DNA from: Legionellales bacterium
GTDB lineage: Bacteria > Pseudomonadota > Gammaproteobacteria > JAHCLG01
NCBI GenBank assembly: GCA_026125385.1
Contig: JAHCLG010000004.1
Span: 29,782 to 93,781, forward strand
Direction of reading: 5' to 3'
Length of the DNA: 64,000 bases
Shown: positions 14,773 through 34,220 of the stretch, piece by piece
How the letters are laid out: the number at the start of each line of letters is the position of its first letter
How positions within the stretch are numbered: position 1 is the first letter of the stretch
Program-made: the position numbers and the translations under genes
Notes under the pieces: generated by a model
The model's database searches: none
What the model was told of the DNA's origin: nothing
What the model saw: the letters and a program-made list of their open reading frames with translations, nothing else

Positions 14773-15016
14773 TAAAAGCAGATATTCCGTATTTATCAGC
14801 GCGAAAATCCTCAACTGACGATTACCCATATTAATGCTAATAGCGATATTGTATTCATGATTAAACGCACACTAGCCACTTATTTTTAATATTATATATA
14901 AAAATCAATGAATTATATAAAGCAAGCTCATCCGTCGCACCGTAATGTTGGTTACCGTGCTTGCGCACCTAAAAGTGTGGTGTATAATCATGGTAACGAA
15001 ATCAATGGTGTAACCA

Positions 15017-16138
15017 ATGAATACAAACTATTTCACAACGAAAGTCGCTACTAAGTTAACTTTTTGTAATCGCCAGAACGAAACTAAAGTTCTAGCCAGT
15101 AATATTCATAAAAATCAGCATACCGTAGTGGTGGCGCCGCGCCGCTATGGAAAAACTAGTCTCGTGGAACAGACATTGTTGCAAATGGGACTGTTATATA
15201 CCAGGGTTGATTTATTTTGTGTGGTGTATGAAGAAGATATTTGTCGGAAAATAGCTAAGAGTTTGTCGAAAGTGATCCGCGAAATGGTTACCTTTTCCGA
15301 GCAAGCAGTTCGTTTAGTAGAACAATGTTTTAAATCTGCCTCAATTGGAATTAAAGCGGGAGCAATAGAAATTAAAGTAGAATTTGGAAAAACCAATAAT
15401 GCTATTAGCCAGTTAGAAGATTTATTAGAAGGAATAGAGCATCTGGCACAAAAAAAAAATAGAGCGGTGGTGATATTTTTTGATGAATTTCAAGATGTAT
15501 TAAAAGCAGATGATACAAACAAAATACAAGCCACTATCCGAGCTGTAGCACAACATTCTAAATACGTGACTTATGTTTTTTCAGGCAGTTCGAGAATGAT
15601 GTTGAATAAAATTTTCGATGATAAAAAACAACCATTGTATATGCTTTGCAATAAAATTATCTTGGAAAGAATTAGTTCTGAACATTTTCATCAACATATT
15701 AAAAATGCGGCACAAAAAAAATGGCATATTGAGTTAAAAGATGAAATCATAGATGAAATTTTAATGATCACAGAGTGTCATCCTTATTATGTCAATTTTT
15801 TATGCGATAAATTATGGGATTTCGACATGGCTCCGTCATTGGCACAAATAACCCAATGTTGGGATCAGGCCTTGCTTGAAAATAAAGGAAAAATTATTGC
15901 CGATCTCGAACATCTTAATACTAATAGGACAAAGGTTCTTACTGTGATTGCATTACTGGGTATAGTTAGCGAACCGAATAGCAAAATTTTCTTAGATCAA
16001 GTGAAATTACCACTCTCCAGCACGCAAAATGCTGTGCAATATTTATTAAATCATGATTATCTCTACGAAACCAAGGACGGGCTAAAATTAATAGATCCTT
16101 TGATGAGAAAATTTATTGCAGATAGATATCTCAATTAG
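15017..16138 (+). CDS. orphan Orc1/Cdc6-type ('archaeal ATPase' PF01637-like) AAA+ ATPase, paralog 1
   Basis: Walker A APRRYGKTSL and Walker B VVIFFDEFQ. No C-terminal DUF234. Confidence 0.7.
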   Translation: MNTNYFTTKVATKLTFCNRQNETKVLASNIHKNQHTVVVAPRRYGKTSLVEQTLLQMGLLYTRVDLFCVVYEEDICRKIAKSLSKVIREMVTFSEQAVRLVEQCFKSASIGIKAGAIEIKVEFGKTNNAISQLEDLLEGIEHLAQKKNRAVVIFFDEFQDVLKADDTNKIQATIRAVAQHSKYVTYVFSGSSRMMLNKIFDDKKQPLYMLCNKIILERISSEHFHQHIKNAAQKKWHIELKDEIIDEILMITECHPYYVNFLCDKLWDFDMAPSLAQITQCWDQALLENKGKIIADLEHLNTNRTKVLTVIALLGIVSEPNSKIFLDQVKLPLSSTQNAVQYLLNHDYLYETKDGLKLIDPLMRKFIADRYLN

Positions 16139-16216
16139 TTTTAAACTTAGCAACAAAGCCTAAAATTCAAGTGTGAAGAGTATAGGTTGAAAATCCAGTC
16201 GTATTGAGTCTAGAGT

Positions 16217-19200
16217 TCATAATAATATGCGTTCAATCCCACCCCGATTCACCTTGGCAATGAAATTCTCTTGCCAATGTTCACCCAATAACTGCGCGAT
16301 TAATTCCACAATAATGTAATCTGTGGTGATCCCGGTGCTGGATTGATAATTGCTTAAGCCTTTTACGCAAGCAGGGCAGGTGGTTAAAAGTTTAATATTA
16401 TTATTCACCACTTTATTTTCCCCGGATAATTCACGTATGCCTTTGCTAATTTCCTGCTCTTTACGAAAACGCAATTGATGAGCAATATCAGGGCGAGACA
16501 TGGCTAAGGTTCCGGCATCTCCACAACAACGCTTAGAGGGTAAAATAGGTTGTTGCATTAAGGTTTCAGCAATTTTTAAGGGTTCATAATGTTTAATTGG
16601 TGAATGACACGGGTCATGATATAAATATTGAGTTGATGCAGAAGGTTTAATTTTTACATTTTTTTCAAATAAATATTCATGAATATCCATAATTCGACAA
16701 CCCGGAAAAATTTTATCGAATTGATAATCTTGTAATTGATCGTGACAGGTTCCGCATGAAACAATCACGGTTTTAATATCTAAATAATTGAGGGTATTAG
16801 CAACGCGATGAAATAATACTCGATTACGTGTGCTAATTTCCGTACCTTTTTGCGCATCACCTTCAGCTTTTTGCGGATAGCCACAACACAAATAACCCGG
16901 TGGTAACACCGTAATGATACCTAAATCAAAAAGCATAGCCAAAGTAGCCAAAGCCACTTGACTGAATAAACGCTCAGAACCACATCCAGGAAAATAAAAT
17001 ACCGCTTCGTTTTCTGCAGTTATTTGACTAGGATCGCGTAATAAGGGAATAAATTCTTCATTTTCAATGGTTAATAATTGGCGAATGGGTTTTAATTGCA
17101 TGGAATTCACTAAGGGCTTGCGCATAAAGTGAATAACTTGTTCACGCACAGGCGTTTTTCCAGTGGTAGCTTTTGGTAATGGCTGCTCGTGTAAAAATGG
17201 TTTAATAAATTGATGAATTAAACGTTGCACACGACTGCCCCAATTTAAAAATAATTGCCGCTGCAATTTAATATTCATAGGATTTTGAGCATTTAAATAC
17301 ATCATCGCTAAACGCGTGCCAAGCTTTGGGCGGCGTTGTTGGCGTTGGCGTAAAATTTGGCGCATGCGAATAGAAACATCGCCAAAATCAATATTTACCG
17401 GACAAGGTGCTAAACAATGGTGACAGGTCGTACAATGATCTGCAATATCATTTAAGGCGTCGAAATGTTGTAACGAAATGCCGCGCCGCGTTTGTTCTTC
17501 ATACAAAAATGCTTCGATAATCGCACCTGTCGCTAAAATTTTATCGCGAGGTGAATAAAGTAAATTAGCGCGCGGAATATGGGTTTGACATTTAGGTTTA
17601 CATTTTCCACAACGCAAGCAATCTTTAATAGCTAGATTTAATTCGCCTAATTCGCTGGCTTTTAAAATTAAGGCTTCTTGTTCTAATAAGCTAAAAGAAG
17701 GAGTAAAGGCACGATCTAAAGCATAAACATCTAATAATTTATCGCGATTAAATAAGTGGGTTGGATCGATTTTATTCTTATATTCTGCAAAATGATAAAT
17801 TGCTTGATTACTGACAAAGGGTAACTTAGTAATTCCAATTCCATGCTCACCAGAGATCACCCCATCTAATTCAATCACCTTGCTCATAATGCGTTTTACA
17901 ATTTTTTCTGCGCTATTTAACATGTCATAATCATTCGAATGAACAGGAATATTGGTATGAACATTACCATCGCCTGCATGCATGTGAAGCGCAATAATAA
18001 TTCTGGATTTTCTTATTTGTTGGTGAATGGTATCGAGTTGATTACGTATCGTTAAATAGAGATCACCGGTAAAAATATATTTTAACGGCTTTTCGATGGC
18101 TTCGCGATAGGAGATACGAATGGCATGACGCTGTAATAATTCAAATAATGACTGGCTACCCGAAGTTTCGATGTCTTTAGGTAATAATTTTTTAATATTT
18201 TTTAAAGGACGAGTTAAGTGATCTAAATAGTGTTGCCATAGTTCTTGCGTTCGTGACAATACTTCTTGAGCCGCTGCAATTTTTTGCTGGAGAATATGTT
18301 GAGATTCTTCGTCCTGATTATTGACTAATTTTTTTAAATAATAAGTGACGGCATTAATAATATGCATTTTATTAATAATGGATTGCTCAATATTAATTTG
18401 CTCAATAAAATTACTGTATGCGGTTAAATGATTCAGTGGAATAACCACGTCTTCATTAATTTTAAAAGCATTAGTATGAGCAGCAATCGCCGCAGTTTTC
18501 GATCGATCAAGCCAAAAGCGCGCACGGGCTTGTGCGCTGATGGCAATAAAACCTTCACCATCGCGACGATTGGCAATTTTCACTACGTCAGAAGCCATTT
18601 TTGCTAGAGCATCTTCATCGTCACTGACTAAATCACCAATTAAAATCATTTTGGGTGATCCATTGCGTGAGGCTTTAGTTGAATAACGCACGGCCTTAAT
18701 GTAGCGCTGGTCTAAATGTTCTAATCCTGCCAATAATACAGTTTTTTGATGTTCTAAAAATTCTTTGATTTCAATAATTGAAGAGACAGCCTGACTTAAA
18801 TCATGGCCAAAAAATTCTAAACAAAAGGTACGAATAAAGGCAGGCTGTCGATGTAAAATAAACGTTGCTGAAGTAATAATGCCATCACAACCTTCTTTTT
18901 GAATACCAGGAATGCCAAATAAACATTTATCGGTAACATCTTTGCCCAAACCAGCTTTACGCAATTCTTTTCCAGGTATCGTTATAATTTCAGGTTCTGC
19001 TAAGAGTTTATGATGATGTCCATCACGACGAGTTAAGCGAAATTTCACGGTTTCTTGTAAATGAATTTTTCCAAAATTATGATTTACTCTTTCAACGATA
19101 AGCCAATTACCATCAGCCGTCACCATTTTCCAGCTTGCTAAATTATCAAGTGCCGTACCCCACAATACCGCTTTTTTGCCACCGGCATTCATTGCAATAT

Positions 19201-20017
19201 TACCGCCAATTGTACTAGCATCTTGTGACGTGGGATCAACGGCGAATACGCAGTGATGCTGGGATGCTAACTCAGAAACTCGCCTCGTGACGACTCCCGC
19301 CTCAGCTGTCACCGTTGCCATTGCAGTTTCACACCCTGGCAATATTTGTTGGTGAATGGCGGATAATTTTTCCAATTTTTCTAAATTAATTACTGCAGTA
19401 AAAGGGTGTAGTGGAATGACTCCGCCAGTATAACCCGTGCCACCCCCTCGAGGAATAATGATTAAATTTAATTCATGGCAGGTTTTGACTAATAAGGGAA
19501 TTTCATCCTCTCGATCGGGTTTTAACACCACAAAGGGATATTCGATGCGCCAATCGGACGCATCGGTGGCATGAGAAACTCGCGATAAACCATCAAAACA
19601 AATAGTATCGTGACGTAAAATTTTACTTAAACGTTTTTTGATAATCTTACGTAAATGTCGTTGTTGTTGAAAATGAGTGGCAAAGCGGGCAACAGCTTCT
19701 CGACATTGCTGGACTAATTCGAGCGTCAGTGTATTATTTTCAGCGCGTTGAATAATTTGATCTAGGCGATGATGTAAAGCATGATATAATGATTTCCAAC
19801 GTTTTGGATGTGTTAATAAATCATCCTGAATAAAGGGATTGCGCGTAATTACCCACATATCACCCAATACTTCAAACAACATCCGTGCCGAGCGTCCCGT
19901 TTTTTGTTCATTGCGTAGTTGATTAATGGTTTCCCAAGCATGACTATCGAGAAACCGCACGACAATTTCGCGATCGGTAAAGGAAGTATAATTGTAAGGT
20001 ATTTCGCGTAAACGCAT
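16217..20017 (-). CDS. DUF3683-type giant flavoprotein: FAD-linked (GlcD-like) oxidase fused to GlcF-like 4Fe-4S/CCG domains (YdiJ-like 2-hydroxyacid dehydrogenase)
   Basis: 1266 aa with N-terminal extension, FAD-binding [11 protein letters not shown], ferredoxin Cys clusters ([23 protein letters not shown]) and two CCG cysteine-rich domains. Confidence 0.8.
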
Positions 20018-20085
20018 GCTAATTCGCTAACAAAAATTGATAACAATTAACTTTACACAGTCTACACCGATATTACGAGTTTTTT

Positions 20086-21474
20086 ATGCAAGAACAATTA
20101 TCGTGTTTTAAACGGGAATTAAAAGCAATTTTTCTCTTGGCAAGTCCATTGGTGATGGCGCTGCTGGCGCAAATGGGAATGGATTTTGTCGATACGGTGA
20201 TGATGGGGCGTTTAGGTCCCGATGCCTTGGCAGCAGGCGCATTAGGTGTCGCTATTTTAGGATTTTTATTCGTCGGCTGTATGGGATTTGGCAATGCCAC
20301 CGGAACCTTAATGGCACGTAGCGATAGTGCGGGACGCAAAAAAGTCACCATTTATTTATTGCATCAAGCCTTATGGATTGCTTTTATATTAAGTTTACCG
20401 TGTTTTATTTTATTATGGTTTGTTCCAGATATTTTAATTGCCTGTGATTATAATCCCCAGTTAGTAGAAAAAACTCGTGTGTTTCTTCACGCACTACAAT
20501 GGGAGTTATTACCCGGTTTATGGTTTTTGTGTTTACGTGAATTTGTGAGTGTCGCCAATCGTCCGCGAGTCATTATGATTATTTCCATTATCTCCATTCC
20601 CTTAAATGCCTTAGGTAATTATATACTAATGTATGGAAAGTTGGGTTTACCGGCGCTGGGCATTGCAGGTATTGGTTTATCCACTACCATTGTGAGCATA
20701 CTCGCTTTTTTAGGCGCATTATTTTATATCGCTAGCAATTCACATTTCCGTCGCTATCCTATTTTTCGCCGTTTTTCTTGGCCAAAGTTACACTATATGC
20801 GAGAAATTATTCGCATTGGTTGGCCAATTAGTGTGATGTTATTATTTGAAGTGGGATTATTTGCGCTTGCTTCGTTGATGATTGGGCGTTTTGGTACCAT
20901 TCAATTAGCCGCTCATCAAATCGCACTGCAATGTTCATCCATAGCCTTTATGTTTCCACTTGGAATTGCGCAAGCGACAGCGATTCGCGTGGGACGAGCG
21001 ATGGCAACGAATAATCCGTTATTGGCGCGGCAAGCGGGTTATGCCGGTTTGTGTTTAGGATTGATCTGTGCGAGCACAACATTATTATTTTTCGTCGCCA
21101 CCCCTTATTATTTAGCTCGCATTTATTTACCACCCGACACTCACGTGCATCGCGCCGTATTAACGGTGACCACGACTTTTTTATTAATTGCCGGATTATT
21201 TCAACTCTTCGATGCCATGCAAGTGATCATGAATGGCTGTTTGCGCGGGTTAAAAGATACTTTTATCCCGATGTTACTGGGTCTTATTTCCTATTGGGCG
21301 ATTGGGATCAGTTTCGCTTACCTCTGTGGATTTATCTGGAATTTACAAGGTGAAGGAATTTGGTGCGGTCTTGCCGTGGGAATTTTTGTTTCTGCAATAT
21401 TACTGTGGTTACGCTTTCACTGGAGTACGTCCAAATTAATTCAAGAGTTTCATCACGATAAAGTTGCAGCGTAA
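20086..21474 (+). CDS. MATE-family multidrug efflux transporter
   Basis: 12-TM protein with a MATE/NorM-like N-terminus (LKAIFLLASPLVMALLAQMGMDFVDTVMMGRLG). Confidence 0.8.
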   Translation: MQEQLSCFKRELKAIFLLASPLVMALLAQMGMDFVDTVMMGRLGPDALAAGALGVAILGFLFVGCMGFGNATGTLMARSDSAGRKKVTIYLLHQALWIAFILSLPCFILLWFVPDILIACDYNPQLVEKTRVFLHALQWELLPGLWFLCLREFVSVANRPRVIMIISIISIPLNALGNYILMYGKLGLPALGIAGIGLSTTIVSILAFLGALFYIASNSHFRRYPIFRRFSWPKLHYMREIIRIGWPISVMLLFEVGLFALASLMIGRFGTIQLAAHQIALQCSSIAFMFPLGIAQATAIRVGRAMATNNPLLARQAGYAGLCLGLICASTTLLFFVATPYYLARIYLPPDTHVHRAVLTVTTTFLLIAGLFQLFDAMQVIMNGCLRGLKDTFIPMLLGLISYWAIGISFAYLCGFIWNLQGEGIWCGLAVGIFVSAILLWLRFHWSTSKLIQEFHHDKVAA

Positions 21475-21524
21475 GTTGAGAGCTTATATGATTTAAATGT
21501 TTAGGTGAGGGCGGGATTGTTGCA

Positions 21525-22943
21525 TTGAAACGTTTTTTTAGTTTAATAATAATATGTTGTTGGATTACCGCGGTATTCAGCATAAATTTAGGTACATTAA
21601 CCTTGCGTGATGTCGTAATGTTGGCTTTGCGCAACAATCCGCAGGTGCAGAGTTCAGAACTCAATCGTGTTAACGATAAATATAAAGTTGCTCTGGCGTA
21701 TTATCAGTTTCAACCGCAGTATTCCTTGCAAGGTTCAACATCGTATCAAGATACCAAAAATGCAGGTGTAAAATCGTATTCTAAAAACTCCACCTTAAAT
21801 CCCGCGGTTTCAATTAATAGCCCGTTAGGAACAAATTATAATATCAGCATGAATAATAATTATGTTAATAATTATAATCCGGTGGTCACCGCGACTATCA
21901 CCCAACCTCTGCTGCAAGGTTTTGGCACAGATGTAGTTTTAAATGATTTTTTTACCACGTTGGAAAATGAAAAAATTAATCGTATGGGTTTTCGCGATAC
22001 CATCACGCAAACCATCGTTGATACGGTAAATTTATATAATCAATTAATCTCAGCCCAGCGCAGTTATAAAATTCAACAATTGCAACTAAAAGAATCGGTA
22101 AAATCTGCTGAAGATACGCAAAAATATATTAAAGCAGGAACAAAATCCAACATGGATTATATTCAGGCACAATCGCAAGTGGCCAATGGCCAGTTGAGTT
22201 TAATCAGCAGTCAAAACAGTATTCAACAAGCCAAAATTGCCTTATTACAAGAATTAGGTTTAGAACCCGATACACAGTTTAATATTGTGAATAATTATAC
22301 GCTGCCTGCGCTAAAAATTCCCAGTCAAGAACAAGCCATTCACATGGCACTCGCTTATAATAATAGTTATCAAAGTTTAATTATTCAGCGTAAAGCGTTA
22401 GAACGCGCTTTAATTATTGCGAAAGATGCTGAACGGTGGAAATTAGATTTAAAAGCCACGGCAACTACAGGATCTGCTTCGGGCAGTGGCCCTAATGCTG
22501 GCTTTCGTTCGCTGTTTAATGGCTTAAATAATTCCCGATCTATCGAATTAGATTTAACGGTACCGCTCGATCCTTTGCAATTACGCGCGAATATCGTTAG
22601 TGCCAAAATTGCCTTAGAAGAAAATACGATTAATATTGCTAATACCAAGCGCTCCGTAATTTCGCAAGTGATTAACGCCTATCGCGATTTAGATATTAAT
22701 AAACGGCAAATTGATTTGGCAATCAATGCTGAAAAACTGCAACAACAAGTATTAGATAATTCACTAAAACAAAATAAATTTGGTCGCGTTTCGCAGTTTG
22801 AGGTTAATTCGAATCGGCAACAATTAATTCAAGCACAATTAAATGTAGTAACGGCAGAAAATAATTATTCCAATAGTTTGGAAACATTTAGTCAATTAAT
22901 TGGGGTTAGTTTACAACGTTGGGGATTGAGGTTGCGATATTAA
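21525..22943 (+). CDS. TolC-family outer-membrane efflux protein
   Basis: Signal peptide, LTLRDVVMLALRNNPQV start and two repeated OEP halves. First gene of the OMP-MFP-ABC efflux operon. Confidence 0.8.
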   Translation: MKRFFSLIIICCWITAVFSINLGTLTLRDVVMLALRNNPQVQSSELNRVNDKYKVALAYYQFQPQYSLQGSTSYQDTKNAGVKSYSKNSTLNPAVSINSPLGTNYNISMNNNYVNNYNPVVTATITQPLLQGFGTDVVLNDFFTTLENEKINRMGFRDTITQTIVDTVNLYNQLISAQRSYKIQQLQLKESVKSAEDTQKYIKAGTKSNMDYIQAQSQVANGQLSLISSQNSIQQAKIALLQELGLEPDTQFNIVNNYTLPALKIPSQEQAIHMALAYNNSYQSLIIQRKALERALIIAKDAERWKLDLKATATTGSASGSGPNAGFRSLFNGLNNSRSIELDLTVPLDPLQLRANIVSAKIALEENTINIANTKRSVISQVINAYRDLDINKRQIDLAINAEKLQQQVLDNSLKQNKFGRVSQFEVNSNRQQLIQAQLNVVTAENNYSNSLETFSQLIGVSLQRWGLRLRY

Positions 22944-24121
22944 TGATTACGATTAAAAAAACAGTATGGATGCTTATTTTTTTCAGTCTTGGCTTAACGG
23001 CGTGCTCTTCACCTAATAAAACCAAGAGTATAAGCACAAATATTTATACAGTCAGTGCTCGCGATCAAGTAACGCCTTTGTATTTTACAGGAACAATAGC
23101 ACCCTTAGAAATTGTTAATATTGCTTCACCTGTGGATGGAAATGTTAAAAAACTATATTTTCGATATGGCGAGCGTGTTAAAAAAAATCAAGAATTATTA
23201 TTATTGCAATCTGATAAACTCATGACAGACTATCAAACGGCACTTACTTCATTTTTAGAAGCCAAAGATAAATATTTAGCAAGCAAAGTGCAAATGGAAG
23301 GTACGGAAGAGTTATATCAGGCAGGATTGATTCCAAGAAATGATTATCAAAATGATAAAAGTAATTTAGCTGACAATTATTTGTCGTATACTCAGGCCGA
23401 AAATAAATTAAAAAGCATTTTAAAAAATGCCAAGGGATTTTTAAACGAAGATGCAGATATTACGCAATTAAATTTGGAAGATGAAGCAGAAGTACAAAAA
23501 GCATTAAATGTAAAATTAAACGAGCTTTCTATTCAAGCCAGTAATTATGGAATAATTTTAATGCCAATTAAAGAGGGCGGCAGTAGTAGCGATGATTCAG
23601 CAAAAATATTACGCGAAGGTAGCCAAGTAAAACAAGGACAAACGTTAGTGTCACTGGGCGATTTTAGCGGCTTATCGATTAATATTAATGTCAATGAAAT
23701 TAATATTAATGCCATTAAACCAGGACAGGCGGTGAAAGTAACGGGTGTTGCTTTCCCTGATATTACCCTCGATGGTAAAGTCATGAGCATTGATGTGCAG
23801 GCTGCCGCCGCAGAAAATGGCGGAGGATTACCCACATTTCCAGTAACTATTGTTGTGCCTCACTTAACACCACAGCAACAAGAAACCATTCACATCGGCA
23901 TGAGTGCGAAGGTCGAATTATTTATTCAAAATGGCAAACAAATTATGATCCCGATTAAAGCGATTGTAGAAAAAAATGGCCAGAGTTATGTGCAATTGGT
24001 TACCAGTGAAAATCCGTTAAAAACGCAAGAAGTCTTAGTGCAAACAGGACAGCCCGAAATAAACGATGTAGTGATAAAACAAGGCTTAAAAGTAGGAGAT
24101 AAAATTCTTGTTAACCATTGA
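22943..24121 (+). CDS. HlyD/MacA-family periplasmic adaptor (membrane-fusion) lipoprotein
   Basis: Lipobox LGLTAC, biotinyl-lipoyl plus coiled-coil hairpin plus beta-barrel organisation. The ATG at 22943 overlaps the TolC stop (TAATG). Confidence 0.75.
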   Translation: MITIKKTVWMLIFFSLGLTACSSPNKTKSISTNIYTVSARDQVTPLYFTGTIAPLEIVNIASPVDGNVKKLYFRYGERVKKNQELLLLQSDKLMTDYQTALTSFLEAKDKYLASKVQMEGTEELYQAGLIPRNDYQNDKSNLADNYLSYTQAENKLKSILKNAKGFLNEDADITQLNLEDEAEVQKALNVKLNELSIQASNYGIILMPIKEGGSSSDDSAKILREGSQVKQGQTLVSLGDFSGLSININVNEININAIKPGQAVKVTGVAFPDITLDGKVMSIDVQAAAAENGGGLPTFPVTIVVPHLTPQQQETIHIGMSAKVELFIQNGKQIMIPIKAIVEKNGQSYVQLVTSENPLKTQEVLVQTGQPEINDVVIKQGLKVGDKILVNH

Positions 24122-24779
24122 CATGCAAGGAATATGCAAATGGTATAAATTAGGTGAACACGTTCACCAAGTACTCGATAATGTTAATTTTGCGGTTAAG
24201 CCTGGTGAGCTAGTATCGATCATGGGCGCATCGGGATCGGGAAAATCTACGCTGATGAATATTATAGGTTTGCTTGATCGGCCTAGTTCAGGCGTATATA
24301 AATTAAATGGGCAAGATGTCAGCCAAATTAATCACAGCGAATTGGCTCGTATTCGCAATCAAACGATGGGCTTTGTATTTCAACAATTTTTTTTATTACC
24401 TCGTTTAAGTGCCTTGCAAAATGTGGCATTACCTTTGCAATATTCTCCACATTATATTGCTCACCAACGCGAAGTTTGTTTTTCGATGTTGGAAAAAGTA
24501 GGCATGGAAAAATATGCTAAACAAAAGCCGCATCAATTATCGGGCGGTCAACAACAACGCGTTGCTATTGCACGTGCGTTGATTTTGCATCCGTCAGTGT
24601 TATTAGCCGATGAGCCCACAGGAGCCTTGGATTCTAAAATTGGCCAAGAAGTCATGAATTTATTTATTGAGTTAAATCGCCAAGATAAAGTCACCACCGT
24701 GATCATTACCCACGATGCCAAAATTGCCGATCAATGTGATCGTGTGGTGCATGTTCAAGATGGAAAAATTGTGGATTAA
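24108..24779 (+). CDS. MacB/LolD-type ABC transporter ATP-binding protein
   Basis: Walker A GASGSGKST, signature LSGGQQQRVAIARAL, Walker B LLADEPTGALD. Confidence 0.9.
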   Translation: MLTIDMQGICKWYKLGEHVHQVLDNVNFAVKPGELVSIMGASGSGKSTLMNIIGLLDRPSSGVYKLNGQDVSQINHSELARIRNQTMGFVFQQFFLLPRLSALQNVALPLQYSPHYIAHQREVCFSMLEKVGMEKYAKQKPHQLSGGQQQRVAIARALILHPSVLLADEPTGALDSKIGQEVMNLFIELNRQDKVTTVIITHDAKIADQCDRVVHVQDGKIVD

Positions 24780-24789
24780 GGAAAATTCT

Positions 24790-25989: not shown

Positions 25990-25994
25990 CAGGC

Positions 25995-26160
25995 TAATAT
26001 CAAACGCACCAAAATGAGAAAATGCATTTTAGTGCGCCACATTTAGAGACATTAGTGACGCACCAAAGTGAGAAAACACATTTGGGTGCGTTTAATTCAG
26101 CCTTATTTATAACGCACCAAATCGAGAAAATGCATTTTAGTGCGTTTACATCCATGGTAT
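25995..26160. repeat. three tandem copies of a near-palindromic about 32 nt motif CGCACCAAAnTGAGAAAAyrCATTTnrGTGCG
   Basis: Copies are readable at 26003-26036, 26059-26092 and 26111-26144. Each can form a hairpin (CGCAC-CAAAATG / CATTTTAGTGCG). The third copy overlaps the GTG at 26140 used by the ORF track as the ATPase-2 start. Confidence 0.7.
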
Positions 26161-27633
26161 AGTAAACGCAGCAAATGGTGTGGGAGATTAGACGTGGATA
26201 GCATTTTCATTGGCAGACAAGCAGAACTCAAGGATTTACAACAACTTAACCGGCGTAAGGTCGCAAATTTAGTCATCATCCAGGGACGACGGCGGATTGG
26301 TAAAAGTCGCCTGATTGCTGAATTCGCTAAGGGGCAAACGTTTTATTGTTTCACTGGCATGGCGCCTAGTCCCGATACCACACCACAGATGCAACTCGAC
26401 GAATTCGCCAGGCAATATGCTGAGCAGTTTCATTTGCCACGCTTTTTGATGAACGATTGGGGAGACCTTTTTACTTTGTTATATAAGTCAGTGGCTAATG
26501 ACAAAGTAGTCATTTTATTTGATGAGATTTCCTGGATGGGATCACTAGATCCTACTTTTCTCGCTAAATTAAAAAATGCTTGGGATACGCAATTTAAAAA
26601 AAATCCTAAATTGATGTTGGTATTATGTGGTTCGGTTTCATCTTGGATTGAAAAAAATATTATTAGCAGTACGTTATTTCTAGGGCGTCCTTCACTTTAT
26701 ATGAAGCTTAATGAGCTTTCATTGCCAGAATGTAACGAATTTTGGAAAGGAGTTAAACATAAAGTAACTGCCTATGAAAAATTTAAATTATTAGCAGTGA
26801 CTGGAGGTGTTCCAAGATATTTAGAATTGATCGATCCTCATCTGACTGCAGAAGAAAATATCAGACATCTATGTTTTACACCCAATGCGCCACTCGTGGA
26901 TGAATTTGAGCGCATTTTCTCCGACATTTTTGGAAATCGTAGTGAAATGTATAAAAAAATTATTCAAAGACTGGTGATTGGTCAAGCAACGTTAGATGAA
27001 ATATTAGCAAGTTGCGGAAGAGAAAAAACGGGAGATTTTAGTGAATATTTAAATGATTTAGAATTAGCAGGATTTGTAGCACGGGATTTTACTTGGCATT
27101 TAAAAAATGGTAAGCAATCAAAATTGAGCCATTATCGGCTTAAAGACAATTATGTTCGGTTTTATTTGAAATACCTAGAACCCAATAAAGCGAAAATTAA
27201 TAAGGGACTTTTTAGAAAGCAATCAGTAACTTCCTTACCCGCTTGGGAAAGTATTATGGGTTTACAATTTCAAAATCTTATTTTAAATAATGATCTCGGA
27301 ATCATTCAAAAGTTAGCTATACCGTTTGAAGATGTGGTTTTTGTTAATCCTTTTTTTCAGCGAAAAACGAAACAGCAAGCAGGATGTCAAATTGATTTAT
27401 TGATCCAAACCAAATTTAATTGTGCCTTTGTGTGTGAGATCAAATTTCATAAGTCAGAACTAAATACTTCAATTATTAATGAAGTGGATGAAAAAATTAA
27501 GAAATTAAAACTACCCAAAAATTTTTCGTATCGCCCCGTCCTAATCCATGTCAATGGCATTCGAGATGCGCTGAAAGAAGAAGGTTATTTTTCCAATATT
27601 ATTGATTTCGGAGAGATTCTCCTCGGTAATTGA
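26140..27633 (+). CDS. orphan AAA+ ATPase (PF01637-like) with a C-terminal DUF234-like domain, paralog 2
   Basis: Walker A GRRRIGKSRL and Walker B VILFDEISW. No in-frame ATG precedes Walker A. The start is GTG at 26140 or, more plausibly, GTG at 26194 (GGAGA SD 6 nt upstream). Confidence 0.7.
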   Translation: MRLHPWYSKRSKWCGRLDVDSIFIGRQAELKDLQQLNRRKVANLVIIQGRRRIGKSRLIAEFAKGQTFYCFTGMAPSPDTTPQMQLDEFARQYAEQFHLPRFLMNDWGDLFTLLYKSVANDKVVILFDEISWMGSLDPTFLAKLKNAWDTQFKKNPKLMLVLCGSVSSWIEKNIISSTLFLGRPSLYMKLNELSLPECNEFWKGVKHKVTAYEKFKLLAVTGGVPRYLELIDPHLTAEENIRHLCFTPNAPLVDEFERIFSDIFGNRSEMYKKIIQRLVIGQATLDEILASCGREKTGDFSEYLNDLELAGFVARDFTWHLKNGKQSKLSHYRLKDNYVRFYLKYLEPNKAKINKGLFRKQSVTSLPAWESIMGLQFQNLILNNDLGIIQKLAIPFEDVVFVNPFFQRKTKQQAGCQIDLLIQTKFNCAFVCEIKFHKSELNTSIINEVDEKIKKLKLPKNFSYRPVLIHVNGIRDALKEEGYFSNIIDFGEILLGN

Positions 27634-27711
27634 GATTGAAAAAATGAATCCCACAATCAGGTACCACCGGCATGGCCGCTAGTACCTGATTTTATCTAAT
27701 GAGAGGTGATG

Positions 27712-27745
27712 AGTGCAGGAGTTTCGCACTTTCAGTGCGCTACTC
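27712..27745. terminator. repeat-family hairpin GCAGGAGTTTCGCACT-TTC-AGTGCGCTACTC followed by a T-run; probable bidirectional terminator between ATPase-2 and fba
   Basis: Stem-loop readable in the sequence. Related copies lie at 32924-32955 and 40631-40675. Confidence 0.5.
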
Positions 27746-27762
27746 TTTTCTGAATTGATTTC

Positions 27763-28827
27763 TTATGCAATCACCGGTTGTAATTTTCCAGCAGAATACA
27801 ATTGATACATGGCCTCCATGCTTAAGACTTTTATTTTGCCCGCATGTCCTGCGCTACCAAACGCTTCAAAACGTGCGATACAAATTTCACTCATGGCTTT
27901 AATCGTTTCTTGTAAATATTTACGTGGATCAAATTCGCTGGGATTTTTCGCCAGAAAACGCCGAATAGCGCCGGTGGAAGCTAAACGCAAATCAGTATCA
28001 ATATTAATTTTTCTTACTCCATGACGAATGCCTTCTTGAATTTCAGCAACAGGCACACCATAGGTTTCGGGAATTTTTCCGCCGTATTCATTAATAATTT
28101 CTAGCCATTCTTGCGGCACCGAAGAAGAACCATGCATCACTAAATGCGTGTTGGGAATGCGTCGATGAATTTCTTTTAACCGAGCAATGGCTAAAACATC
28201 GCCGGTGGGTGGACGAGAAAATTTATATGCGCCATGACTGGTGCCAATGGCAATGGCTAAAGCATCGACGTGGGTTTGTTTGACAAAATCGGCAGCTTGC
28301 TCTGGATCCGTGAGTAATTGATCGCGATGTAATTTACCACTGGCACCCGATCCATCTTCTTCTGCGGCTTCGCCAGTTTCTAACGATCCTAAACAACCTA
28401 ATTCACCCTCTACGGAAACACCACACGCATGCGCCATATCCACGGCTTGTTGAGTAATTTTGACATTATAGTCATAACTCGCGGGTGTTTTCATATCTTC
28501 CATTAACGATCCATCCATCATCACAGAAGAAAATCCTAATTGAATAGAACGTTGACACACCGCAGGAGATGCGCCGTGATCTTGATGCATGCAAACAGGA
28601 ATATCTGGAAATTCTTCGAGTGCGGCATCCATTAAATGTTTAATAAAACGTGGACCCGCGTATTTTCTGGCACCAGCCGAGGCTTGCACAATCACCGGTG
28701 ATTGGGTGCGCTCGGCAGCTTCCATAATTGCACGCATTTGTTCTAAATTATTGACATTAAATGCGGGAACACCATAATGATGTTCAGCGGCGTGATCGAG
28801 TAATTGGCGTAACGTAATTAAGGGCAT
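27763..28827 (-). CDS. fba: fructose-bisphosphate aldolase, class II
   Basis: 354 aa. PAFNVNN and HxDHG zinc-binding motifs of class II FBA. pgk-pyk-fba operon. Confidence 0.9.
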
Positions 28828-28845
28828 AAATAACTCCTAACAAAT

Positions 28846-30279
28846 TTAATAAACATTTCCCACTTCAACAATTTTTAATGAATTGGTGTGGCCGTGTTGA
28901 CCTAATAAATCACCGCGCGTAATAATCACCCAATCGCCTTTTTGCACGATGTTGCGTTTTTCTAATTCAGCAACCGCTGCGCGATTGACTTCTTCTGGTG
29001 ACATGGTGGATAAATCAAATTTTACCGGATAGACCCCACGATATAAATTTATTTTTTGTAAGGTTTGATCACTACGGGTTAATCCATAAATTGGAATTCC
29101 TGAACGAATGCGCGACATCCACAAAGGCGTCGACCCCGATTCTGTTAAAGCAATAATACTTTTAATATTATAATGATTCGCACAATACATGGTAGACATG
29201 GCGATGGCTTCATCAAAACGTTTAATTTCAACTTCCATACGATTTCTGGATTGTAAATTAATGCGATTTTTTTCGGCACCTAAACAAATACGGCTCATTG
29301 CTTGAATGACTTTTACCGGATTGTGTCCGGTTGCGGTTTCTGCCGATAACATCACGCAATCGGTGCCATCTAATACCGCATTCGCAACGTCGAATACTTC
29401 GGCACGTGTAGGAATTGGGTTAGCGATCATGGATTCCATCATTTGTGTAGCGGTGATCACCGGTTTATTGCGATAGCGGCATTGATGAATAATGTGTTTT
29501 TGCACCGCAGGTAATTCGGCATCACCAATTTCAACGCCTAAATCACCACGCGCCACCATGACCCCATCGCTGGCATCAATAATTTCATCGATAGCAGTAA
29601 TGGCTTCGACACGTTCCACTTTGGCAATTACACCAGCGGTGGAACCGGCTTGTGTTAATAACTGTTTGGCTTCTAAAACATCTTCAGCATTGCGTGGAAA
29701 AGATAAGGCTAAATAATCGGTGCCTAATTCTACGGCAATGTTTAAATCGGCTTTATCTTTATCGGTTAATGCTTTTGCCGATAATCCGCCACCTTGGCGA
29801 TTAATGCCTTTATTATTCGATAATTCGCCATCGACTAAAACTTCGCAGTAAATTTTTTGATCGTGAACTTTATCGACTACAAATTCCATTAAGCCATCGT
29901 TTAATAATAAAATATCGCCAGCTCTGACATCATTAGGTAATTCTTTATAATCAATTCCGACTTGCAATTCATCGCCAGCATTGACCTCTAAATTAGCATC
30001 TAAAATAAATTTAGCGCCTTTTTTTAGAGTAATTTTATTATTTTTAAAACGCGCAATGCGAATTTTAGGGCCTTGTAAATCAGACAAAACGCTAATGTGT
30101 TTTTGATGTTTTTTTGCCAATTCTCGCACCATTTGAATGCGTTTCGCGTGATCCTCTTTACTGCCGTGAGAAAAGTTGAGGCGCACCACATCCAATCCGG
30201 CTTTGATCATATTTTCTAAAACCATGGGATCATCAGTTGCAGGGCCTAAGGTTGCAATAATTTTTGTTCGTCTAAGCAT
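28846..30279 (-). CDS. pyk: pyruvate kinase
   Basis: [14 protein letters not shown] start (the ORF-track upstream extension is rejected) and MVARGDLG motif. Confidence 0.9.
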
Positions 30280-31447
30280 GATGAAATTCCTTCGCACGTT
30301 GTTGTAAAATGGCGACGGCGGGTAACGTTTTTCCTTCAATAAATTCTAAAAATGCCCCACCACCCGTGGAAATATAAGAAATATTTTTCGCTATATTAAA
30401 CTTATCAATTGCGGCTAACGTATCACCACCACCAGCAATAGAAAATGCTGAAGAATGGGCAATTGCTTTAGCAAGTGCAGCAGTCCCTTCACTAAACTGC
30501 GGAAATTCAAACACGCCCACTGGACCATTCCATAAAATGGTATGAGCTTTATTGATTAATTCGGTAAATTGAGCACGCGTTTGTGGCCCAATATCTAAAA
30601 TTAAATCATTATCGGCCACTTCAGTGACGGATTTAATGGCAAATGGCGCATCGGCGGCAAAAGCTTTAGCAGTAACCACGTCAACAGGTAATGGAATAGT
30701 AATTTTAGATAATAATTTTTTGGCAGTGGGAATTAAATCAACTTCTACCAAAGATTTTCCAATTGGAAAATCTTTAGCAGCTAAAAAAGTATTGGCAATG
30801 CCTCCACCGACAATTAAATGATCGACGATAGTGGAAAGTGAATCTAATAAGGCTAATTTTGTTGATACTTTTGCACCACCCACAATTGCAACTACGGGTT
30901 TTTTTGGATTATCGAGCGCTTTGCTTAATGCTGTTAATTCCGCTTCTAATAATGGACCTGCACACGCAATCGGTGCAAATTTGGCAACCCCATGCGTCGA
31001 TGCTTGGGCGCGATGAGCGGTGGCAAAAGCATCCATCACAAAAATATCACATAAATTGGCGAGTTGTTGTGCTAAATTATCGTCATCTTTATTTTCACCG
31101 ACATAAAAACGAATATTTTCTAATAAAACAATTTGGCCAGGTTGTAATGTTACGCCCGCTTGCCAATCTGTGATTAAAGACACTTCTTGTTGCAGCGCTT
31201 GCGATAAATAATTAGCAATAGGTTGTAATGAAAATTCAGGATTAAATTCCCCTTCTTGGGGACGGTCTAAATGTGATACTAGAATAATATTGGCACCTCG
31301 TTGCTGCAATAATTTAATCGTAGGCAGTGCTGCTTCTAAACGTTTAGTATTAGTAATGACGCCATTTTGTAATGGGACGTTAAAATCTTCACGAACTAGC
31401 ACCCGTTTATTGCGAACATCAACATCATCTACGACAATAGTATGCAT
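30272..31447 (-). CDS. pgk: phosphoglycerate kinase
   Basis: [11 protein letters not shown] and the GGGA...GKTLP Pgk pattern. Confidence 0.9.
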
Positions 31448-31497
31448 TTTCTCGTTTCCATAATATTTTAAATGAGGGGCATTCTAACCTAAACTTG

Positions 31498-31557
31498 ATG
31501 AAATTGTCAGGAGCGTATATTGTTTTGTTTTTTCAACTTATACTTTTAGGAAAATAA
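31498..31557 (+). other. possible 19-codon upstream ORF (MKLSGAYIVLFFQLILLGK) whose TAA overlaps the tnaA-like ATG (TAATG)
   Basis: Read directly in the sequence. No good SD and no Trp codon, so it is not a TnaC equivalent. Weak. Confidence 0.15.
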
Positions 31558-32921
31558 TGAAAACCATCATCGAACCTTTTCGGATTAAAAGCGTAGAACC
31601 CATCCGCATGACTACTCGCGAAGAACGTCAAGAATTATTACGCCGCGTGGATTACAACTTATTTGGTCTACAATCTCAAGATGTGATAATTGATTTATTA
31701 ACGGACTCTGGTACGTCGGCGATGAGTGCGGAGCAGTGGGCAGCCTTACAACGCGGTGATGAAAGTTATGCAGGTTCCGCCTCGTTTTATCGTTTTGTTG
31801 AAAGCGTTCAAGAATTAATGCCGTTTCGTCACATTATTCCTACTCATCAAGGTCGTGCCGCAGAACGAATTTTAATGTCGATTGTGGGTGGCGAAGGAAA
31901 ACGCATTCCCAATAATACCCATTTTGATACCACACGCGCGAATATTGAGGCCACACACGCGCTCGCGGAAAATCTCGCTATTGCAGAAAGTAATCAACCT
32001 AATACCTTGCATCCGTTTAAAGGTAATATGGATATTGAAAAATTGGATGCGTATTTAGCGCAATATTCACAGCAAGTTCCATTAGTCATGATTACGATCA
32101 CCAATAATGCCGGTGGTGGTCAACCGGTTTCATTAGCCAATATTCGCGAAACCAAACGTATTTGTGAAAAACACGGTAAATTATTATTTATCGATGGTTG
32201 TCGTTTTGCTGAAAATGCGTATTTTATTAAATTACGTGAAGCAGGGTATGAAAATAAGCCTATTAAAGAAATTGTGCGTGAAATTTTTTCTTATGCAGAT
32301 GGCATGACCATGAGTGCTAAAAAAGATGCCTTTGCCAATATCGGTGGATGGCTGGCATTAAATGACGATCAATTAGCCGAACAATGCCGCAATGAATTAG
32401 TGATTAGCGAAGGTTTTCCAACCTATGGTGGTTTAGCTGGACGCGATTTGGATGCCATTGCGCAAGGTTTAAAAGAAATTGTCGCAGAAGATTATTTGCA
32501 TTATCGACTTCGCACCGCGCAATACCTGGGCGATGCGTTAGAAAAAATTGGAGTGCCACACATTAAACCCGTGGGCGCACATGCGGTTTATGTGGATGCT
32601 CGTGCCATGTTGCCGCATATCGATCCTTTAGATTATCCAGGACAAGCGCTCTGTATCGCATTATATGAAATCGGTGGTGTTCGGGCATGTGAAATTGGTA
32701 GTGTAGTATTTGGTAAACAACCCGATGGCAGCGAAAAACCCGCAGACATGGATTTGGTACGGTTAGCATTTCCACGTCGAGCTTATACGCAAAGTCATTT
32801 TGATTATGTCATCGAATGTTTGCAGGAATTATATTGCCAGCGTGAAAAATTACGTGGGGTAAAAATTGTTTGGCAACCGCGTTTTTTACGTCATTTTACC
32901 GCGAAATTTTCACCACTCTAA
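31557..32921 (+). CDS. tnaA: beta-eliminating lyase, tryptophanase/tyrosine phenol-lyase family (closer to tryptophanase)
   Basis: Collinear with E. coli TnaA and TPL: PFRIKSVEP, DLLTDSGT, PTHQGRAAE, SAKKDA PLP-lysine region, C-terminal LRHFTAKF. Confidence 0.8.
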   Translation: MKTIIEPFRIKSVEPIRMTTREERQELLRRVDYNLFGLQSQDVIIDLLTDSGTSAMSAEQWAALQRGDESYAGSASFYRFVESVQELMPFRHIIPTHQGRAAERILMSIVGGEGKRIPNNTHFDTTRANIEATHALAENLAIAESNQPNTLHPFKGNMDIEKLDAYLAQYSQQVPLVMITITNNAGGGQPVSLANIRETKRICEKHGKLLFIDGCRFAENAYFIKLREAGYENKPIKEIVREIFSYADGMTMSAKKDAFANIGGWLALNDDQLAEQCRNELVISEGFPTYGGLAGRDLDAIAQGLKEIVAEDYLHYRLRTAQYLGDALEKIGVPHIKPVGAHAVYVDARAMLPHIDPLDYPGQALCIALYEIGGVRACEIGSVVFGKQPDGSEKPADMDLVRLAFPRRAYTQSHFDYVIECLQELYCQREKLRGVKIVWQPRFLRHFTAKFSPL

Positions 32922-32923
32922 AC

Positions 32924-32998
32924 AGGAGTTTCGCACCAGTGCGCTACTCCTGGTTATAACAAAGTTATGGTAGTTTATGAAAAGTTATGGTAGTTTAT
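32924..32998. repeat. hairpin of the CAGGAGTTTCGCAC family (probable tnaA terminator) followed by an 18-bp tandem direct repeat AAAGTTATGGTAGTTTAT x2
   Basis: Read at 32924-32955 and 32958-32996. Confidence 0.55.
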
Positions 32999-33032
32999 AA
33001 AAAATTCATAACATTAGCTAAGATTGTTATAT

Positions 33033-34220
33033 ATGGATCCACGCACTAACCCATATGCCCCTGGCGCAGGTACGCAACCACCCGAGTTGGCGGGGCGAGA
33101 GGACATTATCGAAAAAGCGGCTATTGCCTTAGATCGTTGCCGCAACGGGCTATCTGCGCGGGGAATTGTTTTGGTCGGATTGCGTGGAGTGGGAAAAACC
33201 GTATTGTTAAATCGAATTGCTCAAGAAGCACAAGCTAACGATTTTGCGGTAGTAACAATTGAAACACCTGAAAAACGCTCATTACCTGCATTACTTATAC
33301 CAGCATTACGCGCCGTATTATTGAGACTTAATCGCGTAGCCGCCATGGGTCAATTAGCCCAAAAAGCATTGCGAGTACTGGGTGGTTTTGTGACAGCAAT
33401 GAAAGTGAAATATGATGATGTCGAGTTTGGAGTCGATCTAGGTAAACAACCAGGTATTGCGGATTCCGGCGATTTGGAACATGATTTAGTAGAACTTTTC
33501 CTTGAAATAGGAAAAACAGTTCAAGCTCACCATACGGCCTTGGCATTATTTATCGATGAAATTCAGTATATTAAAGAAGATCAATTTGCGGCATTAATTA
33601 TGGCACTGCATAAATGCGCGCAACAACGCCTTCCTGTATTATTAATTGGAGCGGGATTACCACAATTAGTGGGGCAAGCAGGGCGTGCAAAATCCTACGC
33701 TGAACGCTTATTTGAATATCCTGAAATTGGCCCTTTAAGTGAAATTGCTGCAAAAGCAGCGCTTGAAGTGCCGGCCAAAAAGCTGAAAGTTAAGTTTGCA
33801 AAAGTTGCCTTGGACGAAATTTTAAAACAAACACAATCCTACCCCTATTTTATTCAAGAGTGGGGTAAACACAGTTGGCAAGTGGCGCAACGATCACCTA
33901 TTACACTTAACGATGTAAAGTTAGCGACAGAGTTAGCCATCACTGAACTTGATATGAGTTTTTTCCGTGTGCGTTTTGATCGTTTAACACCTCAAGAAAA
34001 AAAATATCTGAGGGCGATGGCTGAATTAGATTTAAATTTACGCCGTTCGGGCGATATTGCGCATTTGCTAAAACGTGAAGTCCAAGCCGTGGCACCAACC
34101 CGTGCAAGTTTAATTGCCAAAGGAATGATTTATAGCCCAGCGCACGGCGATAATGCGTTTACTGTGCCTTTATTTAGTGATTATATAAAGCGAGTAATTC
34201 CAGAATTAGAAATACTCTGA
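33033..34220 (+). CDS. orphan AAA+ (AAA_16/Orc1-like) ATPase, paralog 3
   Basis: Walker A GLRGVGKTVL and Walker B ALFIDEIQY. The ATG at 33033 is used; the ORF-track start at 33024 is TTG. Confidence 0.7.
   Translation: MDPRTNPYAPGAGTQPPELAGREDIIEKAAIALDRCRNGLSARGIVLVGLRGVGKTVLLNRIAQEAQANDFAVVTIETPEKRSLPALLIPALRAVLLRLNRVAAMGQLAQKALRVLGGFVTAMKVKYDDVEFGVDLGKQPGIADSGDLEHDLVELFLEIGKTVQAHHTALALFIDEIQYIKEDQFAALIMALHKCAQQRLPVLLIGAGLPQLVGQAGRAKSYAERLFEYPEIGPLSEIAAKAALEVPAKKLKVKFAKVALDEILKQTQSYPYFIQEWGKHSWQVAQRSPITLNDVKLATELAITELDMSFFRVRFDRLTPQEKKYLRAMAELDLNLRRSGDIAHLLKREVQAVAPTRASLIAKGMIYSPAHGDNAFTVPLFSDYIKRVIPELEIL

Follow-up and report, generated by a model that had tools for sequence, protein, structure and literature searches.

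Three PF01637/AAA_16-type ATPase genes with gene-borne upstream repeats in a 64-kb stretch of a Legionellales metagenome-assembled genome

PDC-S27 and related PF01637/AAA_16 ATPases are counted among the most abundant predicted defence candidates of bacteria and archaea, and passages of the same source describe PDC-S27 as an ATPase fused to a PD-(D/E)xK domain (PMC12988326). PDC-S27 is a PADLOC phage-defence candidate that was found by guilt-by-embedding in BREX, DISARM and type I restriction-modification loci (Payne et al., bioRxiv 10.1101/2024.01.29.577857); the passages found by keyword look-up mention neither operator palindromes nor insertions of PDC-S27 into housekeeping operons. Here we describe three genes, designated ATPase1, ATPase2 and ATPase3, in a 64-kb stretch of DNA (hereafter the window) from a metagenome-assembled genome (MAG) labelled "Legionellales bacterium". 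All three belong, as ordinary members, to known, widespread, uncharacterised families, and the hairpins near them are not insertion scars; the new points are the putative operator arrays, each specific to a subfamily, and what appear to be precise single-gene insertions into core operons. On the whole, we lean towards the view that the region holds three independently acquired, self-contained single-gene ATPase cassettes with self-repressing promoters and a possible conflict role.

An earlier note on this DNA had pointed to three open reading frames (ORFs) with N-terminal P-loop ATPase domains within 20 kb, each a singleton amid housekeeping genes; the ORF list and Pfam agree with the first statement and the annotation of the neighbours with the second. 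The genes are as follows:

15017-16138, plus strand: ATPase1 gene, 373 aa, intact
26194-27633, plus strand: ATPase2 gene, GTG start, 479 aa, same as the NCBI protein
33033-34220, plus strand: ATPase3 gene, 395 aa, intact, identical to NCBI protein P0241

A 127,011-bp contig at NCBI encodes proteins 100% identical to ATPase2 and ATPase3, and the flanking proteins carry the accessions MCW5588526-544. The start of ATPase2 had been placed at 26140, a position inside the third upstream palindrome described below, and is corrected here to the GTG at 26194, which matches the NCBI model. Nor are the genes orphans, as they had been called, given families of 1,486 (ATPase1), more than 7,565 (ATPase2) and more than 8,000 (ATPase3) relatives. 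Profile comparison found no further paralogue of the three in the window.

All three proteins share the PF01637/AAA_16 fold class, which is Orc1/Cdc6- and STAND-like, and a winged helix; a nuclease domain is present in ATPase2 only. Each has intact Walker A and B motifs that do not vary in its family alignment (PRRYGKTS and FFDEF in ATPase1, GRRRIGKS and LFDEIS in ATPase2, GLRGVGKT and FIDEIQ in ATPase3). ATPase1 is of PF01637 type: it has an AAA+ domain and, C-terminal to this, what is probably a winged helix, but no nuclease domain. It scores 33.9 bits against Pfam ATPase_2 (PF01637), marginally over the gathering cutoff of 33.2; its family profile matches the PDB entries 2FNA (2e-10) and 2QEN (2e-5, full length), and its residues 303-357 give sub-threshold matches (E 0.2-0.7) to DNA-binding proteins of the winged-helix type. 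ATPase3 consists of an AAA_16-type AAA+ ATPase, a helical lid and a C-terminal winged-helix-like domain, and it fits AAA_16 (PF13191; 62.7 bits, E=8e-17, full profile 1-167, cutoff 32.6) better than PF01637 (20.7 bits, below the cutoff of 33.2). The predicted model of ATPase3 has a predicted local distance difference test score (pLDDT) of 73, and its top Foldseek matches are Cdc6/Orc1 (2qby_A), 2fna and RuvB.

In ATPase2, an AAA+/STAND-like ATPase and a winged helix precede a C-terminal PD-(D/E)xK (DUF234-like) nuclease domain. The protein passes the PF01637 cutoff (48.4 versus 33.2 bits) and aligns along its whole length with PDLC04984, the PADLOC model for candidate PDC-S27 (E=5.3e-85, 284 bits; residues 23-457 of the long ATPase2 ORF against profile positions 4-435 of 474). 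AlphaFold models it with high confidence (pLDDT 91, predicted template modelling score 0.88), and within the C-terminal 100 residues the motif D401...E415-x-K417, invariant in the family alignment, is placed by that model on the consecutive beta strands E398-406 and E410-416. The DUF234-like character ascribed to this C-terminus by the earlier note is thus upheld by the motif, by the model and by the 35 of 47 family members that match DUF234 (E<=1, best 4.9e-5; NERD is matched by 2). ATPase2 itself reaches 13 bits against Pfam DUF234 (PF03008; E=0.14, profile positions 1-93 of 100), below the cutoff of 22.5 bits, and is a divergent DUF234/PD-(D/E)xK relative, not a curated DUF234 member.

As to relationships among the three, which had been called unrelated, ATPase1 is remotely homologous to ATPase3 (profile E 7e-13 and 2e-8; BLASTP 2e-4), and the label stands for ATPase2, for which no similarity to either is detectable by sequence. 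Their assignment to an Orc1/Cdc6 class is sound at the level of the fold (Foldseek, domain order) but not as membership: against TIGR02928 (Orc1/Cdc6, cutoff 181.3 bits), ATPase3 scores 32.1 bits over residues 18-82 only, and neither ATPase1 nor ATPase2 gives a match. Single-sequence and profile searches of the PDB with ATPase2 and ATPase3 found nothing significant, leaving fold comparison alone informative, and the sole match in a PHROGs search was phrog_6841, a family of unknown function.

Part of the evidence for our reading comes from the upstream regions. The repeats that precede all three genes are conserved, family-specific elements, which accompany the gene and extend over its promoter, and they look like cassette-borne operators that are probably autoregulatory. 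In the window they comprise:

14948-15016, plus strand: ATPase1 promoter and putative operator, with TTGGTTACC at 14948-14956, a CACC..GGTG inverted repeat over TATAAT at 14963-14988 and GGTAAC at 14992-14997
25990-26193, plus strand: ATPase2 promoter and putative operator, with three palindromes, -10 box, half-site and ribosome-binding site
26005-26036, 26059-26090 and 26113-26144, plus strand: ATPase2 palindromes CGCACCAAA-N14-TTTNGTGCG, from the repeat search
26158-26163, plus strand: ATPase2 TATAGT -10 box, 3' of the last palindrome
26167-26175, plus strand: ATPase2 lone half-site CGCAGCAAA, between -10 box and ribosome-binding site
26182-26186, plus strand: ATPase2 GGGAG ribosome-binding site
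32961-33032, plus strand: ATPase3 promoter and putative operator, with AAAGTTATGGTAGTTTAT twice, at 32961-32978 and 32981-32998
33005-33012, plus strand: ATPase3 inverted partner TTCATAAC, followed by CTAAGATTG at 33018-33026

Each ATPase had been said to abut a repeat, which is correct for all three, although none had been named for ATPase1, where one lies at 14948-14997. The ATPase1 layout (TTGGTWACC, then CACC..GGTG over TATAAT, then GGTAAC) is kept 5' of homologues of 66-68% identity in other contexts (loci L082 and L083). A broad sample of the ATPase1 family from a metagenome scan, with relatives of 25-41% identity among the matches listed, includes many loci that have their own idiosyncratic two to four repeats around a TATAAT-like box. 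For ATPase3, the motifs GTTAT..(G)TTTAT, ATAA(C/G) and TAAGAT/TAAGGT recur 5' of homologues of 58-77% identity in unrelated contexts.

In the ATPase2 array, the triple 54-nucleotide (nt) unit that holds the palindromes spans 25990-26144, and the cassette starts 1 nt past the macB stop codon. The CGCACCAAA palindromes recur 5' of ATPase2 homologues of 68-71% identity (L001, L084, L254), again followed, past the last of them, by a -10 box and by a single half-site immediately 5' of the ribosome-binding site; across 236 loci, this palindrome is found exclusively 5' of ATPase2 homologues. Palindromes of the same architecture are present in 10 of 10 independent full-length loci of the ATPase2 family (identity >=51%), and a 31%-identical partial match (L099) has no upstream palindrome. 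The half-sites themselves fall into at least five classes, CGCACCAAA, GGAGACAAA, AGCAGCAAA, ACGACAAA and GACAYTAAAAT, the loci with their own versions being L091-096 (GGAGACAAA..GTCTCC), L097/098 (AGCAGCAAA..TTTGCTGCT), L250 (ACGACAAAT..ATTTGTCGT) and L252 (GACAYTAAAAT). A lone half-site 3' of the -10 box is kept in at least five loci of the family (the window, L001, L084, L254 and L091), and the conservation of an unpaired half-site argues for recognition by a protein over formation of a hairpin. Furthermore, winged-helix residues are alike within the CGCAC class and unlike between operator classes, which lends weak support to a putative binding of each protein to its own promoter.

Upstream repeats were also counted, as exact repeats of at least 10 nt within 110 nt upstream of the gene. 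They occur in 8.5% of control upstream regions (n=414), as against 47% of the ATPase1-family loci (n=78; Fisher p 5e-15, Mann-Whitney p 1e-17), 55% of the ATPase2-family loci (n=11; Fisher p 2e-4, Mann-Whitney p 3e-5) and 18% of the ATPase3-family loci (n=39; Fisher p 0.056, Mann-Whitney p 6e-5). Upstream 9-mers are shared by 2-3% of pairs when the proteins are less than 40% identical, a share that climbs to 73% at 70-90% identity. Because the repeats are kept with the gene in unrelated contexts, they are a property of the cassette and not of the site.

Three further observations concern these motifs. Palindromes of the form CGCACCAAA-N12-16-TTTGGTGCG on viral contigs (13 matches, no ATPase nearby) were treated as chance occurrences. 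Most of these matches are a hairpin of terminator-type appearance, AAAACGCACCAAACGACGTCAAATCAGTTTGGTGCGTAAAA, shared by ten IMG/VR contigs with near-identical flanks (within L237-L249), and this hairpin fits the ATPase2 half-sites by chance. The putative ATPase1 operator GCGCACCTAAAAGTGTGGTG (14963-14982) shares the half-site GCACC-AAA with ATPase2 CGCACCAAA (26005-26013), which could be cross-talk between two PF01637 proteins or a coincidence.

The genomic distribution of the homologues supports the view that the three ATPases behave as a horizontally mobile class, and the mobile gene class with repeated independent insertion that had been suggested is borne out by the differing sites of the homologues and by their presence on plasmids and IMG/VR contigs. 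The closest relative of ATPase1 is 70% identical, and its relatives include MAGs labelled Legionellales, Coxiellaceae and Francisellaceae; ATPase3 has relatives of 73-80% identity in MAGs labelled Deltaproteobacteria, Bdellovibrionota, Verrucomicrobia and Gammaproteobacteria, and a mean column identity of 82% in its family alignment. Close homologues (60-80% identity) sit in unrelated contexts, often as single-gene insertions in or between conserved housekeeping operons: those of ATPase1 at kdsA|eno and FKBP|ShlB; those of ATPase2 between tolR and tolA-tolB-pal (L250/251), 5' of glyQS (L252), after an integrase and beside MqsA-like and RelA_SpoT genes (L254), after der and an AAA_14/DUF4143 gene (L084) and adjoining a two-component system (L001); and those of ATPase3 after grx and in an island with HicA, IS66 and RES-Xre. 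Relatives of ATPase3 were found on 57 IMG/VR contigs and 116 plasmids, but in only one curated phage genome. Five of the IMG/VR copies are next to or near a Peptidase_S24 CI-like repressor gene, four of these co-oriented with the ATPase, and others lie near an integrase, a MazF toxin or a GmrSD-like gene or 5' of terminase genes. For ATPase2 the number of IMG/VR contigs with a relative is 9, and for ATPase1 it is zero.

No partner gene is conserved beside the ATPase2 homologues in the loci compared, and none was found beside ATPase3. None of 80 gammaproteobacterial loci anchored on fba carries any of the three ATPases; these are distant relatives (fba 76-79% identical), the anchor being conserved enough to retrieve distant Gammaproteobacteria only.

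Several of the homologue loci have features of their own. In L250 (5897-7538, and also in L251), the ATPase2 (PDC-S27) homologue stands with its palindromes between tolR (ExbD) and tolA-tolB-pal, 3' of ruvCAB-tolQ, as a single gene inside a core operon with no recombinase nearby. In L083 (6499-9134), the pyrG-kdsA-eno cluster is interrupted by two small insertions: pyrG and kdsA are separated by a DUF29 gene, and kdsA and eno by the ATPase1 homologue, whose 5' leader holds an extra inverted repeat with 17-bp arms, GTAACAGCTCAGTCCCC...GGGGACTGAGCTGTTAC. In L084 (6496-9536), an ATPase gene of AAA_14 + DUF4143 type, which we take to be of the PDC-S01 architecture, lies directly 5' of the ATPase2 homologue, so the clustering of orphan ATPase cassettes is not confined to the present genome. 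Unrelated ORFs of 174 aa (L085, 9221-9745) and 769 aa (L089, 9223-11532) lie about 40 nt 3' of ATPase3 homologues on the same strand; the former had no Pfam match in the scan and the latter has none on record. These two may be variable partner genes; they are not shared, and none is present in the window.

Each cassette brings its own promoter, set among two to four repeats of a short sequence that is peculiar to its subfamily, and the ATPase2 cassette has in addition a terminator-like hairpin directly downstream. We propose that the encoded protein binds its own repeats through the winged helix and represses its own promoter; this autorepression would hold down the level of an ATP-dependent switch protein that is potentially toxic. 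Upon an unspecified cue, the ATPase may change its nucleotide state or oligomerise, and in ATPase2 this switch could license the nuclease against DNA as a conflict or defence function. Given that there is no conserved partner gene to encode a separate regulator, binding of each of the three ATPases to its own promoter would be the simplest reading. A defence role is plausible, though unproven; it is suggested by the origin of PDC-S27, by anecdotal mobile-element neighbours and by the analogy with STAND/Avs proteins.

Several points weigh against this proposal. DNA binding, repression of the promoter and protection against phages are predictions for these proteins. In STAND proteins the winged helix is a part of the nucleotide switch and not a reader of DNA, and hence the DNA-binding element of the ATPases is not established. 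The repeat enrichment of the ATPase3 family is weak at the 10-nt threshold (Fisher p as above), and the conserved upstream sequence could partly be ordinary promoter conservation. Identity of 73-80% across phyla, as seen for ATPase3, is unusual for genes engaged in an arms race. Four neighbouring ORFs have no Pfam match, and a PADLOC scan of these four yielded no defence model. One representative of PDC-S27 gave no protection against T4, T5 and T7 in Escherichia coli B, according to the passage that reports the assay (PMC12881386), and PDCs are described as often lying outside defence islands (PMC12988326). The defence connection raised in the earlier note thus holds in that ATPase2 belongs to candidate PDC-S27, but not with respect to the tested representative or to the four neighbouring ORFs scanned.

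We consider it unlikely, though worth serious attention, that the three genes encode ordinary chromosomal ATP-dependent regulators of the STAND/MalT type or Orc-like, which would govern their own expression and that of host genes and take no part in conflict. In favour of this, the promoters hold operator-like repeats, the proteins have winged-helix domains, no effector domain is present in ATPase1 or ATPase3, housekeeping genes surround all three, and the negative assay of the PDC-S27 representative fits as well. However, a regulator of host genes is hard to reconcile with the lack of any conserved neighbour or regulon context, every homologue being placed differently, and with the invariant nuclease active site of ATPase2. 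Moreover, relatives reside on plasmids, on prophage-like contigs and in toxin-antitoxin or integrase islands, and near-identity across phyla implies horizontal spread.

It is rather improbable that the genes are selfish homing-like or addiction cassettes, with the palindrome array doubling as a site of recombination or mobility. In that case the ATPase-nuclease, or the ATPase on its own, would further its own spread or retention, for instance through cleavage of alleles that lack the cassette or through post-segregational toxicity. The precise single-gene insertions at tolR|tolA and kdsA|eno, with no integrase nearby, would suit them, as would the position of the palindromes at the extreme left end of the cassette and the nuclease domain of ATPase2; many homologues also lie on very short contigs, which may reflect assembly breaks at variable loci. 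Nevertheless, ATPase1 and ATPase3 have no nuclease, there was no sign of target-site duplications or of empty-site alleles, the recognition sites are within the gene's own promoter and not at both flanks, and the family is without known precedent for such behaviour. We give similarly little credence to a bolder extension of our own proposal, namely that PF01637/AAA_16 singletons in general, including PDC-S27, are autonomous self-repressing cassettes whose palindromes might also mediate integrase-free insertion of a cassette of about 1.6 kb. The operons tolR|tolA, kdsA|eno and macB|fba are possibly examples of such insertion, which, if true, would define a type of mobile gene distinct from insertion sequence (IS) elements, integron cassettes and homing endonuclease genes.

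Slightly lower still do we rate the idea, implied by the earlier note, that selfish ATPase genes insert next to hairpins resembling repetitive extragenic palindromic (REP) elements, with hairpins or palindromes marking the boundaries or target sites. The repeats that had been named do exist (the triple 54-nt unit, the CAGGAGTTTCGCAC hairpins, the 18-nt direct repeat and the 17-nt match). Apart from the upstream arrays, the elements at issue are:

27716-27745, no strand assigned: host palindromic repeat CAGGAGTTTCGCAC..GTGCG, copy 1, imperfect, between the convergent ATPase2 and fba
32923-32952, no strand assigned: CAGGAGTTTCGCAC repeat, copy 2, 2 nt past the tryptophanase stop codon, -17.1 kcal/mol, z -4.6
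40640-40672, no strand assigned: CAGGAGTTTCGCAC (CAGGAG hairpin), copy 3, perfect, -26.3 kcal/mol, z -7.5
about 27655-27696, plus strand: terminator-like hairpin directly 3' of ATPase2, -19.4 kcal/mol, z -5.7, followed by UUUUAU
34230-34246, plus strand: 17-nt exact match to the inverted-repeat arms of 11352-11513, 10 nt past the ATPase3 stop codon

Two of the three CAGGAGTTTCGCAC hairpins of the window flank ATPase genes, the ATPase2 cassette begins immediately after the macB stop codon, an inverted-repeat fragment follows ATPase3, and the cassettes do insert at many sites. On the other hand, the CAGGAGTTTCGCAC hairpin (three elements in 64 kb, with 5 strand matches where 0.21 would be expected) does not occur in any of the 236 loci, which include 2 ATPase1-, 11 ATPase2- and 59 ATPase3-homologue loci, and its third copy lies between two minus-strand genes and adjoins no ATPase. 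One copy directly adjoins the end of tnaA and another lies 17 nt past the stop codon of fba, positions such as host terminators or REP elements take. The upstream repeats, for their part, stay with the gene in unrelated contexts and so belong to the cassette. The CAGGAGTTTCGCAC hairpin is therefore a host intergenic repeat unrelated to the cassettes, and the notion of REP-like insertion marks is abandoned. Of the solo arm of a miniature inverted-repeat transposable element (MITE) that had been placed at 34231, the sequence match survives, but it is just a 17-nt internal fragment of a 56-nt arm, with no second arm beside it, and thus no MITE; this fragment, too, is an intergenic host repeat unrelated to the cassettes.

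Finally, descent from remnant plasmid or phage replication modules, with Orc1/Cdc6-like initiators and iteron-like or origin recognition box-like repeats, has next to nothing to commend it in spite of a fold like that of Cdc6/Orc1 bound to origin DNA, of gene-adjacent repeats as at archaeal origins and of relatives on plasmids and prophage-like contigs, and we rejected it on gene contexts: the window copies are singletons in cassettes of about 1.5-1.7 kb with no other replicon genes, the mobile-element copies lie beside immunity, toxin-antitoxin and terminase genes and not replication genes, the repeats overlap the -10 box in an operator-like manner, and the score falls far short of the Orc1/Cdc6 cutoff (32 versus 181 bits).

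With respect to the surroundings of the genes, ATPase1 lies in a low-GC islet and adjoins a gene for a DUF3683 FAD/FeS oxidoreductase. On its 5' side ATPase2 has a MATE pump and an OEP-HlyD-ABC-MacB efflux operon, and on its 3' side fba-pyk-pgk, ATPase2 and fba being convergent. Between ATPase2 and ATPase3 lie fba-pyk-pgk and then the tryptophanase gene (tnaA), which borders ATPase3 on one side; a hypothetical gene, SDR, rhodanese and secB follow downstream. ARAGORN found no tRNA gene as an island anchor. Nine flanking housekeeping proteins that were checked are all singleton clusters at 90% identity among about 15 billion proteins, and hence the collection contains no close relative of the MAG.

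For ATPase1, no relative of at least 90% identity was returned, and the exact protein is not on record in the protein collection searched; the accessions of its neighbours, MCW5588526 and then ...528, leave one unassigned number between them, which may be ATPase1. The low-GC islet (12804-14800, 32-35% GC) encodes hypothetical proteins of 315 and 151 aa that match neither Pfam nor PADLOC. In the 616-nt gap 5' of ATPase1, an ORF of 44 codons (14638-14772) looks by eye like the N-terminus of a helix-turn-helix protein, and it has no Pfam or PADLOC match. A further low-GC stretch (32%) is found at 47000-49000.

The window also holds other repeats. The MITE-like element at 11352-11513 has terminal inverted repeats of 56 nt (93% complementary) around a centre of 50 nt. 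A tandem unit of 22-24 nt, GTAGCCTGGAACGGAGCGCAGCCT, forms arrays at 9263-9613 and 37920-38066, 28 kb apart, which make up long inverted repeats with arms of up to 71 nt (92% complementary). An Rfam scan of the repeats revealed no known RNA family; weak miRNA-like matches at 37936-38017 merely reflect the GTAGCCTGGAACGGAGCGCAGCCT hairpin.

The present analysis has several implications. The putative operator palindromes found in every sampled member of the ATPase2 family of at least 51% identity predict sequence-specific DNA binding and autorepression, and the differences between subfamilies provide matched pairs of protein and DNA site for working out the specificity. Control by an own operator is also a possible explanation of the negative heterologous assay of PDC-S27. 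Furthermore, the insertions of single genes into core operons raise the question of the mechanism by which the cassettes move.

The known systems resemble these genes to different degrees. The CAGGAGTTTCGCAC elements are akin to REP elements and intrinsic terminators in being short GC-cored palindromes with a stable fold in intergenic regions near the 3' ends of genes; they differ from REP elements in that just three copies are visible in 64 kb, and no RAYT or transposase is present among the annotated genes from 12.8 to 37 kb, no systematic transposase search of the whole window having been made. Compared with STAND NTPases (NB-ARC/CED-4, Avs-type sensors, MalT-type), the window proteins are much smaller and are devoid of a long C-terminal sensor repeat domain, and all their nSTAND Pfam scores are below cutoff. 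The likeness to Orc1/Cdc6 (TIGR02928; PDB 2qby, 2v1u, 1fnn) is seen in the order of AAA+ core, lid and C-terminal winged helix, in an N-terminal hxGRxxE motif, in the gene-adjacent repeats and in the presence of Orc1/Cdc6 structures among the top or high fold matches; in contrast to Orc1/Cdc6, the window repeats overlap promoters, replicon context is absent, and the scores stay below cutoff and cover the N-terminal P-loop only. The PF01637 "archaeal ATPase" structures 2FNA (Sulfolobus SSO1545) and 2QEN (Pyrococcus PABY2304) come from archaea, whereas the window copies are bacterial. PDC-S27 is like ATPase2 in being a single gene that joins an ATPase to a PD-(D/E)xK domain, and its model is matched by ATPase2 over the full length.

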